This document shows positions 36,180 to 42,784 of a stretch of DNA of 64,000 nucleotides, in pieces (the first letter of the stretch is position 1; every line of letters starts with the position of its first letter). Origin of the DNA: Candidatus Hydrothermarchaeum profundi. GTDB lineage: Archaea; Hydrothermarchaeota; Hydrothermarchaeia; Hydrothermarchaeales; Hydrothermarchaeaceae. The stretch covers positions 648,889 to 712,888 of the forward strand of contig MTMF02000009.1 in assembly GCA_002011125.2 (NCBI GenBank). Reading direction: 5' to 3'. The notes beneath the pieces were generated by a model. It did not search any database. It was not told the DNA's origin and saw only the letters and a program-made list of their open reading frames with translations. A program made the position numbers and the translations under genes.

Positions 36180-36488
36180 TTAGTTGTATTCTCTCCATGT
36201 GAATTTGCACTTGGTACACCTAAAAAACCTTGTTTCTGCCTCATCAGCTTTCCTCGTCTGTAAGAGCCACCACTCCGCCTCGGTGTTTCCACATTTGCGG
36301 CATTCAGCCTTTGTCGTAGGCAGGGTATTAATATCCTCTTCAAGGATAAGGAGCTTTTTTTTCTTTTCTCTATTCTTAGTTAAAGTGAACTCTTTTTTAT
36401 CTGCTATTTCTTTGGTGGCTCCACATCTCTTACATACTAATTTATTATCTTTTGGAAGTAATAGACTTCCGCATTTTTCGCAGAACAT
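36180..36488 (-). CDS. tfs: Transcription elongation factor TFS
   Basis: Two zinc ribbons; QTRKADE acidic hairpin. Confidence 0.95.
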   Translation of the reverse strand: MFCEKCGSLLLPKDNKLVCKRCGATKEIADKKEFTLTKNREKKKKLLILEEDINTLPTTKAECRKCGNTEAEWWLLQTRKADEAETRFFRCTKCKFTWREYN

Positions 36489-36900
36489 TGTAATCCTCTA
36501 GAATCTTACCATGGTCAAAAGCTAGCTTTAAATTGGATATTTCTTCTATATTAAAAAATCTTGCATCCTCTGCGTCACTACCGGATTTTTCTTTACCTTT
36601 TGCTTTGGCGATATAGCATATAGATACTACATGTCCCCTAGGATCTCTTGAGGGATCGGAATAGACGCCGAGGAGACTTTCTACCTTCACATCTAGGCCT
36701 GTTTCTTCTTTAGCCTCTCTTATTGCAGCCTCTTCTGTGGTTTCTCCACACTCTACGAAGCCACCTGGAATAGCCCACTGCCCTTTGAACGGACTATTCT
36801 TTCTTTTTATAAGTAACACCTTATCATCTCTTTCAATGATTATATCTACTGTTAATGCTGGGGCTTCATGTCCGTTGCAGATACAGAAACAGCGTACCAT
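36445..36900 (-). CDS. NUDIX hydrolase (ADP-ribose pyrophosphatase-like)
   Basis: GGFVECGETTEEAAIREAKEETGL Nudix box, RDPRGH, LAFDH. Confidence 0.92.
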   Translation of the reverse strand: MVRCFCICNGHEAPALTVDIIIERDDKVLLIKRKNSPFKGQWAIPGGFVECGETTEEAAIREAKEETGLDVKVESLLGVYSDPSRDPRGHVVSICYIAKAKGKEKSGSDAEDARFFNIEEISNLKLAFDHGKILEDYNVLRKMRKSITSKR

Positions 36901-37036: not shown

Positions 37037-38506
37037 ATGAGAAAGATACCTCGCTGTATGTCGACCCAGCATCCTGATAACGTGACGGTGCCTTTTTTCT
37101 CAGAGAATAGTGTTTTAGCGGGCGAGGACGAAATAAAAGAAGCTTACTATGTTTTCTCTTCGTTAGAGTGTGATGAGCAGATGTGGGATTTTGAGGGTAA
37201 AGAAGTAGACGCATTTGTCGTAAAGAAACTTTTTTCTAAGTATGAGCACTTTTTTAGGGATAAGATATTGGGCGAAGATGTATTTTTGACTTTTCGAGTT
37301 CCGAACCCTGAGGTAGAGAAGGCTGAGGCGAAGGTACTTTTGGAAACCTTGGAAAGCATTCCTCGTTGTTATGATGCTGCGAAGTTATTTTATGAAAGAG
37401 AGGTAATTCCGGTATTCGAAGTCATTTTGCCTATGACCACATCCTCTAGGGCTTTGAATAGGGTATACCATTTTTATAGGCGCTTTATCTCTGGGAGGCA
37501 GTGGGAATGTATCTCTAATGGTGATATCGAAGTTCATGAATGGATCGGGGATTTCAAGCCTGAGGAGATTAATGTGATACCTCTAATCGAGGATATGGAA
37601 CACCTTCTAAAGGCCCATACTATTGTCGGAGAATATGTTAAGGATAAAAGTCTTGAATATCAGCGGGTCTTCTTAGCAAGGAGCGATCCAGCCTTAAACT
37701 ATGGGCTAGTTAGCGCTGTTTTGTTAAATAAGATAGCGCTCCAAAGGCTGGCGGTGGTTGAAGAGGAAGAGAGCATACCCATATATCCTATTATCGGCGT
37801 TGGTGCAGCTCCCTTTAGAGGGAATTTTAGACCGGATTTAGTGGAAAATTGCCTTGCAGAGTATCCCAGTGTTCAAACTTTCACAATCCAGTCTGCCTTT
37901 AAGTATGATTTTTCAGAGCACGTTGTACGTAAGGGAGTGGAGCATATAAAGAAGGCTAAGAGGAGGAAACCTCTCCCGTTAGATGAAGAAAGATGTCTTG
38001 AACTTCTCACAAGGTTTTCATCTTCCTATATAATGCAGCTGAAAGATGTGGTTCCATTGGTAAGTGCTTTATCAAAGCATGTTCCCAGTAGAAGGGCTAG
38101 AAGACTGCATATAGGTCTGTTTGGGTACTCGAGAGAAGTTGAAGGCTTCCAGCTTCCTAGGGCTATTACGTTCTGCGCAGCATTATACTCTATGGGTCTA
38201 CCACCAGAGCTCTTGGGCATAAGCGCTTTAAGTGAAAAAGATTTGGACTACCTTTCTGAGGTTTATAAGAATTTTCATTCGGACATGGCTATGGCATTGA
38301 GGTATTTTAATAAGAACTCGCTCTCACTACTCCCAGATAGAGTTTCATCCAAGATTGAAGGAGTTTTAAGATTCTTCGATTACGAGGTCGATGAGGAACA
38401 TTCTAGGGCGGTTGACGATATTTTACAAAGTTTTAAAAGAGGTCAAACGGAGGTTCTCACGGAAAAAATAGCTAGAGCAGCATGGATAAGACATTTTCTT
38501 GGTTAG
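37037..38506 (+). CDS. ppcA: Archaeal-type phosphoenolpyruvate carboxylase
   Basis: IPRCMSTQHPDN, WDFEGK, FLARSDPALNYG, PFRG, LPRAITF. Confidence 0.95.
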   Translation: MRKIPRCMSTQHPDNVTVPFFSENSVLAGEDEIKEAYYVFSSLECDEQMWDFEGKEVDAFVVKKLFSKYEHFFRDKILGEDVFLTFRVPNPEVEKAEAKVLLETLESIPRCYDAAKLFYEREVIPVFEVILPMTTSSRALNRVYHFYRRFISGRQWECISNGDIEVHEWIGDFKPEEINVIPLIEDMEHLLKAHTIVGEYVKDKSLEYQRVFLARSDPALNYGLVSAVLLNKIALQRLAVVEEEESIPIYPIIGVGAAPFRGNFRPDLVENCLAEYPSVQTFTIQSAFKYDFSEHVVRKGVEHIKKAKRRKPLPLDEERCLELLTRFSSSYIMQLKDVVPLVSALSKHVPSRRARRLHIGLFGYSREVEGFQLPRAITFCAALYSMGLPPELLGISALSEKDLDYLSEVYKNFHSDMAMALRYFNKNSLSLLPDRVSSKIEGVLRFFDYEVDEEHSRAVDDILQSFKRGQTEVLTEKIARAAWIRHFLG

Positions 38507-38512
38507 TTTAAT

Positions 38513-38878
38513 CTAATTCTTCTCTCTTATATTTTTAAGCAAGTCTGCAAATCCTTCCACAGAGGATTTTCTAATGTTCTCAGCGTCGAGCTTGTTGGCA
38601 AGTATCCCGACACAGTCCTCTATACTAATTTTTCCCTCTATCCAGCCTTGGAAGATATAGCCCTCCGCGTAGTCAGCTAATCCATGCATATCGACTCGAG
38701 TACCAGCTAGGTCTCGCATCCCAGCTTCTATAATGGCCTCTCTTAAAATGTGGTTATGCACTCTTTTTCCTATAGGTTTTCCTGAAACCATTGATAGAGC
38801 TAGAGAATAGATAAGGTTTACAAAACTATCCCCCAAGCTAGAAAACTCTCTAACATCCTTTACCTTAAGCTTGAGCAT
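38513..38878 (-). CDS. Archaeal ribonuclease III-like protein
   Basis: LGDSFVNLIYSLA, DYAE; position downstream of rpoL; start placed at MLKLKV. Confidence 0.75.
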   Translation of the reverse strand: MLKLKVKDVREFSSLGDSFVNLIYSLALSMVSGKPIGKRVHNHILREAIIEAGMRDLAGTRVDMHGLADYAEGYIFQGWIEGKISIEDCVGILANKLDAENIRKSSVEGFADLLKNIREKN

Positions 38879-39347
38879 TAACCTTAGCCTCGGAAACAAC
38901 TCTTTGCAGGTCTTTTAAAGCTTCCTTTAGAATTATCCTTGGAATTGTATCCTTTGTGTAATCCAGTTTTTTTGCTTCTTTTATGTATTTTTCCAGCATT
39001 TTTTCAGTTATCCCTGTTTTTTCCGAAAGGGCTGTGACATCAGCCTTAAGTAAGGCATTAGCTGTGTCTATTCCTCCATCTTTTAGTTTTTTTTCCACTT
39101 TTGGGCCAATGCCTTTAACCTCGGTAAGTGGTACAATCCTCTCCGCTTTTTTGGGAAGAGGCTTATCTTTTGTCTTAATATAAATCTTTGGATTGCTTAG
39201 GAGGGGATGCTCAACCTTATATGATGCGAAAATCACATCTTTGTGTTTATTTAAAATATGGCGCAGAGCGTTGCAGAAAGTGTGGTCCTCTCCAATAAGC
39301 TCGAATTCCAGCTCGTTTTTACTTTCTTTAATAATTTTGATTTCCAT
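38865..39347 (-). CDS. rpoL: RNA polymerase subunit Rpo11 (L) with inserted HhH domain
   Basis: GEDHTFCNAL...SYKVEHPL core; about 70 aa insert with LTEVKGIGPK. Confidence 0.88.
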   Translation of the reverse strand: MEIKIIKESKNELEFELIGEDHTFCNALRHILNKHKDVIFASYKVEHPLLSNPKIYIKTKDKPLPKKAERIVPLTEVKGIGPKVEKKLKDGGIDTANALLKADVTALSEKTGITEKMLEKYIKEAKKLDYTKDTIPRIILKEALKDLQRVVSEAKVNAQA

Positions 39348-39358
39348 CGCAGATTCCT

Positions 39359-39928
39359 CTAGAGAGTTCCTTTCCCGTATTCTGATGATATCTTTCTATA
39401 AACTATTTGGTTGCAGTTACTGCATTTAAGCTTGTTGTTTATTTTTAAGAGAGGCATATTGCACTGGCTACAGTATCCCTTTATAACCCCTAATTCCTTT
39501 TCCACAGTGCTTAGAGCGAGAGGGGTTCTATCTGTATCAATTATCCTAGCTAGAATGATATCTCCGTGACCAAATTCCTTAGATAAATCAGGAACATAGC
39601 TATCCTTAGTCTTTGATATGTGTATGCTTCCTGAAACGCTACCGGATAGTTCTCGGTCAACACCCTTTATCTTGAGTATATCCACAATCGCAAACTGGGG
39701 TTTAATATCCACAATAGTTCCTACGATTATATCCCCTTTTTTAGGCACGGCAGGAGAGCTTGTTTTTGGTTCAACAGACATCTTCCTCTCTTTTAAATCT
39801 ATTTTTAGTGTCCCTGTTATAGAAGCGTATATTTTCCCATCTTCCTCATAAGTACCCTCTCCAGGTATAAATTCCTCTGCATATCCTACTTCCATGCCTG
39901 GTAAGACTAACTCTTCACTTTCAACCAT
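39359..39928 (-). CDS. csl4: Exosome RNA-binding protein Csl4
   Basis: VLPG..G..EE..PG.GT, S1 domain, CSQC/CSNC zinc ribbon, RKISSEYG. Confidence 0.93.
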   Translation of the reverse strand: MVESEELVLPGMEVGYAEEFIPGEGTYEEDGKIYASITGTLKIDLKERKMSVEPKTSSPAVPKKGDIIVGTIVDIKPQFAIVDILKIKGVDRELSGSVSGSIHISKTKDSYVPDLSKEFGHGDIILARIIDTDRTPLALSTVEKELGVIKGYCSQCNMPLLKINNKLKCSNCNQIVYRKISSEYGKGTL

Positions 39929-39930
39929 TT

Positions 39931-40533
39931 CTACTTCCTCCTTATTCTTAATACGATGACATTTATTTTTTTCAATTTTTTCCTATGGAACGCATACGTG
40001 TAGGGCAATTCGAATTCTAGCTTCATAGCCTCAGTTATTTCTCCACCTATATCTCTAATATATTCTTTGAGGAATCCCGAGGTTTCAGCTTTATGCATAG
40101 AGTATGTTATCATTCCAAGTTCCAAGGCTTTTTCTAGGAATACTCGGTCGGCACCTCTTCTTTTAACCCCGAAAGGGGGATTTTGAAATACTGTGTCGCA
40201 TTCTCCCTTTATATCCTTTACGTTGGATTTAACCCATTTCACGTTTACACCAAGGTTAGCGGAATTGTGGGATGCTATCTTTAGAGCTTCTTCATCTATA
40301 TCGACTCCCGTAATCTCCTTGGCCCCTAGGAGCGCACAGCCGATCGCAAGCCGGCCTGTGCCGCAACCTAGATCATATATCCTCTTATCTTTTATGTCTC
40401 CTTTCATGTACGCTAGATATAGTATCTCAGCTGCAGCCTTTGAAGGTATCGTGTATTGCTCTAAGACAGCTTTTGGGCTTTCAAACGCTTTACATTTCTC
40501 CAGCAGAATCTCAAGCCTCTTTTTAGTGAGCAT
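39931..40533 (-). CDS. METTL5-family N6-adenine methyltransferase
   Basis: LEQYTIP, DLGCGTG, QNPPFG. Confidence 0.9.
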   Translation of the reverse strand: MLTKKRLEILLEKCKAFESPKAVLEQYTIPSKAAAEILYLAYMKGDIKDKRIYDLGCGTGRLAIGCALLGAKEITGVDIDEEALKIASHNSANLGVNVKWVKSNVKDIKGECDTVFQNPPFGVKRRGADRVFLEKALELGMITYSMHKAETSGFLKEYIRDIGGEITEAMKLEFELPYTYAFHRKKLKKINVIVLRIRRK

Positions 40534-40652: not shown

Positions 40653-41642
40653 TTATCCTATTTGATCTATTCGGTAGTCTTCCCAGCTTTCTTCTCCAAG
40701 TAGGACTTCTACTTCAAATGGTGTAAGCATGGGTTGCTGATACCTTGCTGCATCGTCGATCGCAATCCTCGGACAGGCTGTGTTAACGAGAGCATCAAGC
40801 TTCCGGAATGAGATAAGGTGTTCTGGTGTTATCTCCCGCAGCGATATGAGATAAGCCCTTTTACCTTTTTCTTCCAGTTTCTTTTTTAGCTTCAAGGCTA
40901 ATTGAACCCTCATTTGCCCTCTCTTTTCTCCAATAATGATCCCGAATGTATTAGCATCTTTAGCTTTTGCTATCCTCACGTATCTCTGGCGTAGAATTTT
41001 TTCCTTGAATTCATCCAGTTTTCTAACTTCACCTAGTATGGGGTCGAGAGCAAGAGTTGGCTTCTTGGTAGCTAGGCAGACCCCAAGAGGATGAAAGTTT
41101 CCGCTACCGATATAAAGAAAGCAGTCCACTTTATCTGCGATATCAGTTGCAGTCGTAAAGGAACATCCCAGTACCTGTCCAGGATATTTTACTCTACCTC
41201 CTGCTTTTCCTATGTGCACTTCAAATCCCTTGCTCACTAAAAATTCCTTTACTTCAGCTAGAATGTTGATATGTTGCACCGTACTAACAAGCCCAATTCT
41301 TGCGGGAAAGAGGTGGAGATTTTCTTCAATCAATTTCAATATGTTACTCCGTAAGTTAATCTCTATATAATAGACCGGTATAGAAGTATTTTTCAATATT
41401 TGTGAGTGACCAAAATGGAAGAGGCCATCACATCCGATGTTTTTCATTTCTTCATCAGCGAGATCGCAAGAGCCATAGCATGGATCGGAGGATATCACTA
41501 CTAGGCAGCCGGTCATAGAGGATATTTCGTCAGCAACTCTTACGGCGTGGTCTTTTATGCCCTCAGGGAACTGTAAGCCAACCATCCTATAGTTGTTCTC
41601 CTTTATTATCCGGCTAATGCGTTCTATTTCAAAATCATACAT
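40653..41642 (-). CDS. dph2: Diphthamide biosynthesis enzyme Dph2
   Basis: LQFPEG, YGSCD, HFGH, GQVLGC, TACPR Fe-S cysteines. Confidence 0.95.
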   Translation of the reverse strand: MYDFEIERISRIIKENNYRMVGLQFPEGIKDHAVRVADEISSMTGCLVVISSDPCYGSCDLADEEMKNIGCDGLFHFGHSQILKNTSIPVYYIEINLRSNILKLIEENLHLFPARIGLVSTVQHINILAEVKEFLVSKGFEVHIGKAGGRVKYPGQVLGCSFTTATDIADKVDCFLYIGSGNFHPLGVCLATKKPTLALDPILGEVRKLDEFKEKILRQRYVRIAKAKDANTFGIIIGEKRGQMRVQLALKLKKKLEEKGKRAYLISLREITPEHLISFRKLDALVNTACPRIAIDDAARYQQPMLTPFEVEVLLGEESWEDYRIDQIG

Positions 41643-41644
41643 AT

Positions 41645-42784
41645 TTATCTTTTTAAAATATCCTTCAAATCTTCTATGAATTGTATGATATTCTCTTCTC
41701 TAATATGGGGCATGATAACAAGCCTAATTTCCCCGCTTCTCGTCCTCGAAGTGACCCATCCTTTCTCTGCGAGTTTCTGAGAGATAATGTCTGCCTTATT
41801 ATGATTAAAAACAAGGATATTCATAGTGGGCTTTAAAACATCCATTCCCAACTCTTTAAGTTCATTATAGAGAAGAATAGTTCTATCCATGCATTTTTTC
41901 ACATTATCTCTGTAGCCCTTTTTTCCGAGTAGCTTCAATAAAGAAAAAGTAGTAGCTGCTGATGCTCCACTTCTAGTTCCTAATATAGTATGTTGAACTT
42001 TTTCAGTCAAATATGGTGCTTCTGTTTCGATGTATTTTAACAATTCTCTGTTTCTAAAAAGTATACCTCCGCTTGGGATTACAGATAGGCCCATCTTATG
42101 AGGGTCTATAGTTATTGATGACACTCCTCTGAGTGAAAAATCGAACTTTCTTACCTCATATCCTAGATCTCTAAGAAAGGGTATCACAAATCCTCCAAAT
42201 GCAGCGTCTACGTGAAGGTATATCCCCTCGTTTAAAGCTATTTCCGATAAAGCCTCTACGTCATCTATAGTCCCATACTCTGTGCTCCCGGCAGAAGCTA
42301 CTATTGCAACAGTTTTCTCCCCTATATTTTTCTTTACATCATTAATGTCAACTGATCTATCCTTTTTATTCCTAGCTTTTATCAACTTCATTCCAAGCAA
42401 ATTAGATGCTTTTTCTAAGGAAAAGTGGGCACCTTCTGATACTACTACTTCAGGTTTTTCTTTACCAGCTTTATTTCTAGCAACCCACAGAGCCATTAGG
42501 TTAGCTTCTGTACCCCCAGACACTATGAATCCACAAGCATCCTTATTGCTTAATAGTGATCCGAGCAACTTTATGCTTTGATCTTCCAATTCTTTAGTTC
42601 CCTTAAAAAGGCCCGCATCTCCTAGGTTAGTTTCCAGAAAAAAACGGTAGACTTTTCTCGCAAATATATGAGGCATAGTGCACATAGAACTCAGTATCTT
42701 ACCATCCGAATATTTCAAATCTTTACGCCTACTAAGCCCTAATATTTTCAGAACTTCTTTTTCGCTGATCCCGTCTTCTTGCAT
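41645..42784 (-). CDS. mfnA: PLP-dependent L-tyrosine/L-aspartate decarboxylase
   Basis: SSMCT.PH, NLGD.GLF, SGGTEAN, HVDAAFGG, DPHK. Confidence 0.92.
   Translation of the reverse strand: MQEDGISEKEVLKILGLSRRKDLKYSDGKILSSMCTMPHIFARKVYRFFLETNLGDAGLFKGTKELEDQSIKLLGSLLSNKDACGFIVSGGTEANLMALWVARNKAGKEKPEVVVSEGAHFSLEKASNLLGMKLIKARNKKDRSVDINDVKKNIGEKTVAIVASAGSTEYGTIDDVEALSEIALNEGIYLHVDAAFGGFVIPFLRDLGYEVRKFDFSLRGVSSITIDPHKMGLSVIPSGGILFRNRELLKYIETEAPYLTEKVQHTILGTRSGASAATTFSLLKLLGKKGYRDNVKKCMDRTILLYNELKELGMDVLKPTMNILVFNHNKADIISQKLAEKGWVTSRTRSGEIRLVIMPHIREENIIQFIEDLKDILKR

Follow-up and report, generated by a model that had tools for sequence, protein, structure and literature searches.

We analyzed a 64,000-nucleotide stretch of contig MTMF02000009.1 (assembly GCA_002011125.2) from the archaeon Candidatus Hydrothermarchaeum profundi, here called the window, whose rpoL gene encodes a small RNA polymerase (RNAP) subunit, Rpo11, with a tandem helix-hairpin-helix (HhH) domain, (HhH)2, inserted ahead of its last helix. 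The gene lies on the minus strand at window positions 38865 to 39347 and, in the open reading frame (ORF) list, is a single continuous frame with zero internal stops. Its start codon lies 11 nucleotides past the csl4 stop codon, with a purine-rich AGAGGAA ahead of it. A preliminary description of this DNA had read the gene as Rpo11, a homologue of the bacterial alpha subunit's N-terminal domain, and had likened the insert to the alpha C-terminal domain (alpha-CTD). The motifs quoted there are all present in the 160-residue frame (KIYIKTKD; LTEVKGIGPKVEKKLKDGGIDT; LSEKTGITEK; PRIILKEALKDL), and the assignment to Rpo11/RpoL stands, with PF13656 above its curated cut-off.

The rpoL gene and its extra segment

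The gene and the parts of its product are as follows.

38865..39347, minus strand: rpoL (Rpo11) ORF, 160 amino acids plus stop codon, ATG start; RNA_pol_L_2 at E 5.2e-21, HHH_5 at E 4.1e-11, RNA_pol_L spanning residues 14-148
39165..39347, minus strand: Rpo11 N-terminal core, residues 1-61 (beta1 2-8, beta2 12-18, alpha1 22-34, beta3 38-44, beta4 54-59), from AlphaFold2, Foldseek and phmmer
39132..39164, minus strand: linker 1, residues 62-72 (KPLPKKAERIV), basic; mean predicted local distance difference test score (pLDDT) of 70 in block 61-70; mean pairwise identity 0.36
38964..39131, minus strand: (HhH)2 domain, residues 73-128; HHH_5; helices 82-90, 96-101, 104-111 and 115-126; matches to RadA/Rad51 N-terminal domains
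39105..39113, minus strand: first hairpin, G-I-G, residues 79-81, from the alignment of RpoL and ribosomal modules
39006..39017, minus strand: second hairpin, T-G-I-T, residues 111-114, aligned with the second hairpin of Pyrococcus furiosus RadA (1pzn_A)
38940..38963, minus strand: linker 2, residues 129-136 (DYTKDTIP), in which 'KD..P' matches, by alignment, the canonical pre-helix turn; mean pairwise identity 0.31
38865..38939, minus strand: C-terminal dimerization helix, residues 137-160, and stop codon; AlphaFold2 helix 135-159

The Pfam matches show how the Rpo11 fold is divided. RNA_pol_L_2 (PF13656) covers residues 12-68 (74.6 bits, cut-off 27), and RNA_pol_L (PF01193) extends over residues 14-148 with profile positions 1-71 of 74 (29.2 bits, cut-off 24); this second match covers nearly the full profile, so that the Rpo11 family model breaks off at the insert and continues on its far side. 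Each of the nine NCBIfam RpoL equivalogs is split by the insert, matches from residue 1 to about residue 68 only and thus stays under the cut-off set for the whole protein (66.2 against 73 at best). In an alignment of 15 long and five canonical RpoL sequences, the latter of 90-99 amino acids, the extra segment occupies approximately residues 66-136, between beta4 (KIYIKTKD) and the C-terminal helix, at a site where the canonical sequences have just a 'G-x-x-D-P' turn. The lengths claimed earlier, about 70 amino acids inserted and 90-100 as the norm, agree with this alignment and with the survey of homologues described below. The C-terminal helix was aligned to canonical RpoL by sequence, the Foldseek alignment comprising the N-terminal 66-69 columns only. 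An intein or other mobile element is ruled out, as the insert matches HhH-type families only and its flanks rejoin the canonical RpoL alignment exactly.

Fold and structural relatives of the insert

That the insert is a tandem HhH domain, as had been proposed, is agreed upon by Pfam, the AlphaFold2 model and the fold searches. HHH_5 (PF14520) matches residues 74-127 over profile positions 4-57 of 57 (43.6 bits, cut-off 27). The model of the whole protein, from a 74-sequence alignment, has a mean pLDDT of 89.8 and a predicted template modeling score (pTM) of 0.61; it contains strands at residues 2-8, 12-18, 38-44 and 54-59, helices at 22-34 and 135-159, and the four helices of the module in between. 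GIG (79-81) and TGIT (111-114) sit between the helices of the module and constitute, in model and sequence alike, two HhH motifs of the G-h-G type, linked by a connector helix. Folded alone from a 39-row alignment, the module reached a pLDDT of 86.7.

In Foldseek searches of the PDB, the core found archaeal Rpo11 chains (4qiw_L at E 2.7e-6, with 8cro_L and 2waq_L at approximately 1e-6 to 1e-5) as well as eukaryotic Rpb11/AC19 chains, and phmmer placed the core with 4qjv_B at 1e-11. The insert superimposed on RadA N-terminal domains (2z43, 2bke) at a root-mean-square deviation (rmsd) of 1.1-1.3 A over 53-55 residues. When the module alone was the query, N-terminal domains of RadA/Rad51 ranked first (TMq 0.64-0.76), no match reached E <= 0.001, and no alpha-CTD was among the matches listed. 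A structure search with VIA-align, independent of Foldseek, gave the module the following scores.

AF1548 C-terminal domain: Z 9.1
RAD51-family N-terminal domains: Z 8.6-9.1
NusA AR2 in complex with the alpha-CTD (2jzb_B): Z 7.6
NusA AR1 with lambda N (1u9l_B): Z 6.8
Escherichia coli alpha-CTD (4mex_A 247-311): Z 6.7, rmsd 2.4 A, 63 residues
Bacillus subtilis alpha-CTD (1z3e_B) and chloroplast alpha-CTD (8w9z_A): Z 6.2 each
Helicobacter pylori alpha-CTD (2max): Z 5.3
Thermus thermophilus alpha-CTD (1doq_A): Z 4.9, 32% identity
SAM domains: Z of about 5-6

The alpha-CTD scores of 4.9-6.7 lie in a range common for small helical domains and below the matches of RadA/Rad51 type. The ranking by sequence is similar: with the insert as query, phmmer found P. 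furiosus RadA (1pzn_A) at 2.6e-5 with both hairpins covered. Thermus alpha-CTD chains matched at a marginal 0.0026-0.0076, the lowest value being that of 1doq_A from T. thermophilus, with 58 residues aligned, and the N-terminal HhH of Haloarcula marismortui L32e matched at E 0.0027. NCBIfam models matching the insert include the RadA N-terminus (7.4e-8), the topoisomerase I C-terminus, several Pol IV models and a Hel308-type helicase; Y-family polymerases and Pol X are also among the structural relatives, and the alpha-CTD Pfam family is absent among the Pfam matches of the 160-residue protein. On the basis of this ranking in sequence and structure, the module is a genuine (HhH)2 domain of the RadA N-terminal type, to which the alpha-CTD appears to be related more remotely, within one fold class.

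Conservation and charge of the module

In pairwise comparisons of 30 main-order genomes, identity averages 0.55 in the N-terminal core, 0.50 in the (HhH)2 module, 0.40 in the C-terminal helix and 0.31-0.36 in the linkers. The module is thus maintained like the Rpo11 core and, judged from these identities, is under purifying selection. In the first hairpin, G79 is found in 96% of RpoL rows and in 100% of the rows of related ribosomal modules (see below), and G81 in 85% and 92%, respectively; in the second, the corresponding values are 85% and 62% for G112 and 77% and 85% for I113. Basic columns common to both classes flank the hairpins at positions 83, 84, 110, 116, 120, 126 and 127, where basic residues are present in 85% of RpoL and 100% of ribosomal rows at K83, 73% and 77% at position 84, 77% and 69% at K110, and 73% and 100% at K120. 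The mean net charge is +3.0 for the RpoL modules and +4.3 for the ribosomal ones.

Paralogous modules on ribosomal proteins

A search of every ORF in the same genome with a hidden Markov model built from the insert scored RpoL itself at 103 bits, a 133-residue protein at 82, RadA at 34 and a 370-residue ORF at 19. The 133-residue protein, encoded outside the window (C9:1615425-1615826, minus strand), consists of Ribosomal_L13e (residues 10-80) followed by a C-terminal HHH_5, that is, an eL13-HhH fusion, and its tail and the RpoL insert share 55% identity across 58 residues (E 4e-18). Proteins of this type, 133-177 amino acids long, occur in at least 12 genomes of the phylum, this one included; the eL13-HhH homologue search returned three proteins only, among them P0192, which is named as L13e of a 'Methanomicrobia archaeon'. 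A further fusion, uL10/P0-HhH, is present in at least two genomes, at L052:581-1744 (plus strand; G028) and L053:276-1451 (plus strand; G026). These proteins of 387 and 391 amino acids comprise Ribosomal_L10 and RL10P_insert, then a linker rich in Ala, Glu, Lys and Pro, and HHH_5 at the C-terminus, the usual place of the factor-binding tail in archaeal P0. The tail of P0051 is 67% identical to the RpoL insert over 60 columns.

In a tree of 99 modules over 60 columns, the RpoL inserts, the eL13 tails, the two uL10 tails and P0183, an unplaced protein, form one 46-row group (SH-aLRT 92) apart from RadA and from multi-HhH proteins, and the RpoL and eL13 classes are intermixed inside this group. 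The tree, in which 53 of the 96 inner branches are without support, names neither a donor nor a direction of transfer. As far as sequence relationships go, the nearest relatives of the Rpo11 insert are the C-terminal tails of eL13 and uL10/P0 in the same phylum, and RadA/Rad51 N-terminal domains come next.

Distribution of the long Rpo11

The phylum set comprised 38 species genomes from 12 families, and a match reaching from residue 1-2 to at least residue 123 was counted as the long form. Long rpoL is present in 36 of the 38, on separate contigs and in all 12 families. The profile search with PF13656 gave no match at all in the other two, G021 (93% complete) and G029 (86% complete), and a short rpoL was seen in none of the 38 genomes. 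G035 to G037, from the other two orders, encode proteins of 147-149 amino acids with a shorter insert that has lost the first G-h-G hairpin. The preliminary description had named absence of the insert from relatives or reads as a point against it; 35 other genomes of the phylum share the architecture, and the contigs of an independent sequencing run from another study, X2, are identical to the window here (100% identity, no indels, in 30 of 30 bins of 38513-39928). Two of these contigs, spanning 38797-38970 and 38950-39751, overlap and together cover the insert. Of the other runs, X1 gave just one 37-nucleotide piece, dissimilar to this DNA, and X3 and X4 covered it in part.

One genome of the same family, G015, has two long rpoL genes on different contigs (C52:8236-8709 and C89:310-783), 61% and 57% identical to the query; the two copies could reflect a mixture of strains or bins, or a true duplication.

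Beyond the phylum set, searches saw just the canonical short form outside lineages labelled Hydrothermarchaeota or without classification, records titled 'Methanobacteriota archaeon' (below) excepted. A word-indexed search at E <= 0.001 found 40 proteins, of which 34 (query included) are 148-172 amino acids long with at least 93% query coverage, PF14520 being in the precomputed list for 29 of them; the other six are 88-99 amino acids long and cover 38-43% of the query. The survey of Rpo11 lengths proposed earlier was run as an exhaustive HMMER search of 1.84 billion representatives, which gave 660 matches at E <= 0.001. Among the best 150 of these 660, at least nine clusters (129-163 amino acids) align past the core; in eight of these the alignment takes in query residues 1-123 or more, while the ninth, P0042 (129 amino acids), aligns over residues 1-99 and then diverges. 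The remaining RpoL-type matches listed are canonical, mostly 83-102 amino acids long, with a few of up to 145 and one of 62, and align over the core only, at most residues 1-93. In a locus survey of one genome per species over 185,579 species, 80 loci were kept; the match is full-length at 21 of these and confined to the core at 59, which come from many archaeal phyla. By record title, 13 of the 21 full-length loci belong to Hydrothermarchaeota, -ales or -aceae or to Candidatus Pyrohabitans and three to a 'Methanobacteriota archaeon'; the remaining five have no classification. In the ESM Atlas, a single cluster of 52 members combines RNA_pol_L_2 (100%) with HHH_5 (87%), and Candidatus Hydrothermarchaeota is its most frequent source. 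We propose that the insert, an approximately 56-residue (HhH)2 domain of RadA N-terminal type with two short linkers, was probably gained in the ancestor of the phylum, in the loop before the C-terminal dimerization helix.

Locus L075 (genome G038), one of the 59 core-only loci, which belongs to Candidatus Hydrothermarchaeota by record title only, encodes a canonical 93-residue RpoL (P0036), and in this genome the module model matches neither RpoL nor eL13. Its best match there (E 7e-22) is in a 978-residue frame, at C12:7059-7247, which may be a topoisomerase I of the type whose C-terminus resembles the insert. Another accessory-domain RpoL is P0053, a protein of 130 amino acids with a complete RNA_pol_L_2 core and, C-terminal to it, a UBA domain (UBA_HYPK at 3.6e-7, above its cut-off).

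In the full-text literature, supplementary files not covered, we found no description of an HhH insert in Rpo11/RpoL or of HhH fusions to eL13 or uL10. The available text of PMC13257274 treats Rpo8 and Rpo6 and mentions Rpo11 only in its introduction and references. Database records of long RpoL carry automatic names only.

A sole rpoL in a conserved gene block

No separate canonical rpoL, which the preliminary description had also named as a point against its reading, was found: in the 2.19-Mb, 97.65% complete genome, PF13656 exceeds its cut-off once, at the rpoL described here. The frames with its three weak matches (E 0.24-0.51) are longer and are those of the normal Rpo3, of aIF2-alpha and of an ORF of 630 amino acids. 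Rpo3 has the RNA_pol_L match (14-252), RNA_pol_A_bac (the RpoA insert domain) and a Fer4 4Fe-4S domain, and is thus a normal partner. The gene described here is the only Rpo11 (RpoL), the small alpha-like subunit, of this organism, and from this we infer that its product would form the Rpo3/Rpo11 heterodimer and be incorporated into RNAP.

The gene is part of a block with three neighbors on the same strand.

39931..40533, minus strand: class I methyltransferase, first gene of the methyltransferase-csl4-rpoL-RNase III-like block; MTS 1.5e-13
39359..39928, minus strand: csl4, exosome RNA-binding subunit; NF034126 Csl4 at 1e-60, 204.6 bits, cut-off 90
38513..38899, minus strand: Ribonucleas_3_2 (PF11469) gene, 128 amino acids, TTG start, overlapping the rpoL 3' end by 35 nucleotides; 4.9e-22, 79 bits, cut-off 25

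The Ribonucleas_3_2 protein (38513..38899) has no NCBIfam match. Across 33 related loci, csl4 adjoins rpoL in all 33, and the RNase III-like gene and the methyltransferase gene are near it in 31 each; the full block is found in 31 of 33.

Further genes around the block are as follows.

36445-36900, minus strand: NUDIX hydrolase gene
37037-38506, plus strand: archaeal-type phosphoenolpyruvate carboxylase (PEPcase_2), E 1.3e-193
40653-41642, minus strand: diphthamide synthase Dph2
41645-42784, minus strand: pyridoxal phosphate-dependent decarboxylase

Possible roles of the module

Our results lead us to suggest, tentatively, that the module is an added DNA contact of RNAP; we regard this as possible rather than established. 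The module would project from the assembly-platform face of the polymerase on a short, two-stranded stalk, exposed to solvent, and might clamp the backbone of a nucleic-acid duplex irrespective of sequence, the likeliest duplex being DNA close to the enzyme. Such an extra contact could raise promoter or template affinity. The alpha-CTD contacts UP-element DNA and engineered HhH fusions serve DNA polymerases, and the role envisaged here would be akin to these. Binding to a duplex backbone is suggested because the hairpins and the basic residues are conserved and because the relatives are mostly DNA enzymes. That Rpo11 is peripheral in the polymerase is consistent with the immobilization of Methanocaldococcus jannaschii RNAP for single-molecule Förster resonance energy transfer via an Rpo11 cysteine, drawn protruding from the core (figure legend in PMC11162788), which does not locate the loop itself.

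Several observations weigh against a DNA contact. The linkers, two of them and of about 8-11 residues, give the module a short reach, and the net charge of the RpoL modules varies from -3 to +11. The loss of the first hairpin in G035 to G037 means that a two-hairpin grip on DNA is not universal in the phylum. With the nearest paralogues on ribosomal proteins, RNA binding or a shared protein partner fits at least equally. Folds of the (HhH)2/SAM type are also found in protein-protein contacts, as in NusA AR2 with the alpha-CTD (Z 7.6) and SAM domains (Z of about 5-6). Moreover, the presence of the D3 domain of Rpo3 at the same topological site makes a role in assembly, by analogy, a serious alternative.

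In this first alternative, the module would pack on Rpo1 or Rpo3 and stabilize or regulate RNAP assembly as the Rpo11 counterpart of D3, with no nucleic-acid ligand. Rpo11 pairs with Rpo3, starting RNA polymerase assembly, and the two form a pseudo-symmetric alpha-like dimer. In the Rpo3 of this genome, the Fer4 domain lies at residues 166-219, directly ahead of the RNA_pol_L match's C-terminal end and thus at the position equivalent to that of the Rpo11 insert, which indicates that the site tolerates a domain and that an assembly role is a real alternative. The retention of the insert in G035 to G037, where the hairpin motif has decayed, also fits. According to the available text of PMC5300874, D3 of Methanosarcina acetivorans Rpo3 spans residues 171-221, ahead of the Rpo11-binding dimerization helix at 227-262, and upon its loss the Rpo3/11 heterodimer still forms while the association with Rpo2' is weakened. 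However, the same module with the same basic columns stands at the free C-termini of eL13 and uL10, where packing on RNAP is impossible, and the main order conserves the glycines of the hairpins together with the basic residues. The pTM of 0.61 and the low-confidence linker in turn suggest that the model does not predict the module to pack on the Rpo11 core in a fixed way. We consider an assembly domain unlikely on balance, serious as it is.

Alternatively, the module might dock a protein. It would bring one factor, such as a transcription regulator, a chromatin protein or a factor of elongation or termination, to RNAP and also to ribosomes, in parallel with activator binding by the alpha-CTD and with NusA AR2. 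Its presence on three unrelated host proteins would be explained in this way, and protein-binding domains are among its fold relatives: apart from SAM domains and the NusA repeats (2jzb_B, Z 7.6; 1u9l_B, Z 6.8), these include the N-terminal lobe of RAD51 on the histone H4 tail (8xbw_L). The conserved surface is nevertheless basic and centered on the hairpins, and the neighboring genes point to no partner, since those for Csl4, the methyltransferase and the RNase III-like protein accompany rpoL in this phylum whatever the state of the module. Docking is a doubtful explanation.

Binding of RNA appears equally doubtful. The module would then contact structured or nascent RNA near RNAP, for instance, handing transcripts to the exosome encoded next door, and its paralogues on eL13 and uL10 would sit on rRNA. 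That the closest paralogues are on ribosomal proteins, that the N-terminal HhH of H. marismortui L32e resembles the insert (E 0.0027) and that rpoL shares an operon with csl4 and the RNase III-like gene all agree with such a role. Yet the linkage of csl4 and rpoL is general in archaea with short RpoL and therefore says nothing specific about the insert, the other relatives in sequence and structure are mostly DNA binding, and the C-terminal end of archaeal uL10/P0 is normally a flexible, factor-recruiting tail and not an rRNA contact.

Very improbably, the module might be a common tether of RNAP (through Rpo11) and ribosomes (through eL13 and uL10/P0) to chromosomal DNA or to one shared partner. 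It is hardly credible at all that the insert is a chimera of assembly, a fusion called in error or an insertion that decays without a function: the genomes concerned are all metagenome assembled and the hairpin motif is degenerate in three of them, but the gene is one stop-free frame, identical in run X2. The architecture recurs on separate contigs of 36 of the 38 genomes and 21 public records have it too, with a module conserved as the core is and no alternative rpoL.

Significance

Rpo11/Rpb11 is among the most uniform RNAP subunits, nearly all archaeal matches listed being 83-102 amino acids long. A folded domain of nucleic-acid-binding type in the Rpo11 of a whole phylum, and an uncultured one, would be a new accessory element of archaeal RNAP; bacteria aside, it would also be the first to sit on the alpha-like assembly platform. 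The eL13 and uL10 fusions extend this picture to one module attached to several information-processing machines in the lineage. Should the module contact DNA, archaea and bacteria would independently have given the same subunit family the same fold class, a clear case of convergence, and promoter-upstream or template contacts would be predicted that the Sulfolobus, Thermococcus and Methanocaldococcus models lack. If it serves assembly instead, the Rpo3/Rpo11 pair would be more symmetric, with D3 on one side and HhH on the other, and would inform how insertions at this loop tune assembly. A common tether would imply that RNAP and ribosomes are colocalized, by a route of transcription-translation coupling or nucleoid association that would be new to all domains of life.

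Comparison with known systems

With canonical Rpo11/RpoL (4qiw_L, 8cro_L, 2waq_L, 7ok0_L) and Rpb11/AC19, the protein shares the beta-beta-alpha-beta-beta core and the C-terminal helix, and like other archaeal rpoL genes it is a single copy in a csl4-rpoL operon with a normal Rpo3 partner; it differs in its length, 160 amino acids against mostly 83-102, and in having about 70 residues of (HhH)2 and linkers in place of the 'G-x-x-D-P' turn. The N-terminal (HhH)2 domains of RadA/Rad51 (HHH_5; 2bke, 2z43, 1pzn_A, 3lda) are the best PDB match by structure and sequence (Z 8.6), but they belong to another host protein and context, and the RadA of the same genome scores 34 bits against 82 for the eL13 tail. 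In eL13-HhH and uL10/P0-HhH, the module and its conserved basic columns are the same, whereas it is C-terminal there, after a long lysine-rich linker, and internal in Rpo11.

The ferredoxin-like Fe-S domain D3 of Rpo3 is similar in being an accessory domain in the topologically equivalent loop, just before the C-terminal dimerization helix. It is otherwise distinct, having a 4Fe-4S ferredoxin fold and being carried by Rpo3 and widespread in archaea, while the (HhH)2 domain is on Rpo11 and in one phylum.

The likeness to the bacterial alpha-CTD drawn in the preliminary description is borne out in part: the host is an alpha-family polymerase subunit, and the helical (HhH)2/SAM-like fold class appears to be shared (Z up to 6.7), but the alpha-CTD is not the closest relative and the attachment differs. 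Each bacterial enzyme has two copies of the alpha-CTD, a C-terminal domain on one long and flexible linker, whereas there is one copy of the Rpo11 module, which lies inside the chain, with linkers of about 11 and 8 residues tying it to beta4 and to the last helix. The first hairpin also differs, being 'G-L-S' in the alpha-CTD and a canonical G-I-G in the Rpo11 insert by the phmmer alignment. The insert is not a member of the alpha-CTD family, because it lacks C-terminal attachment through a single long linker; by analogy, it may still work like an alpha-CTD.

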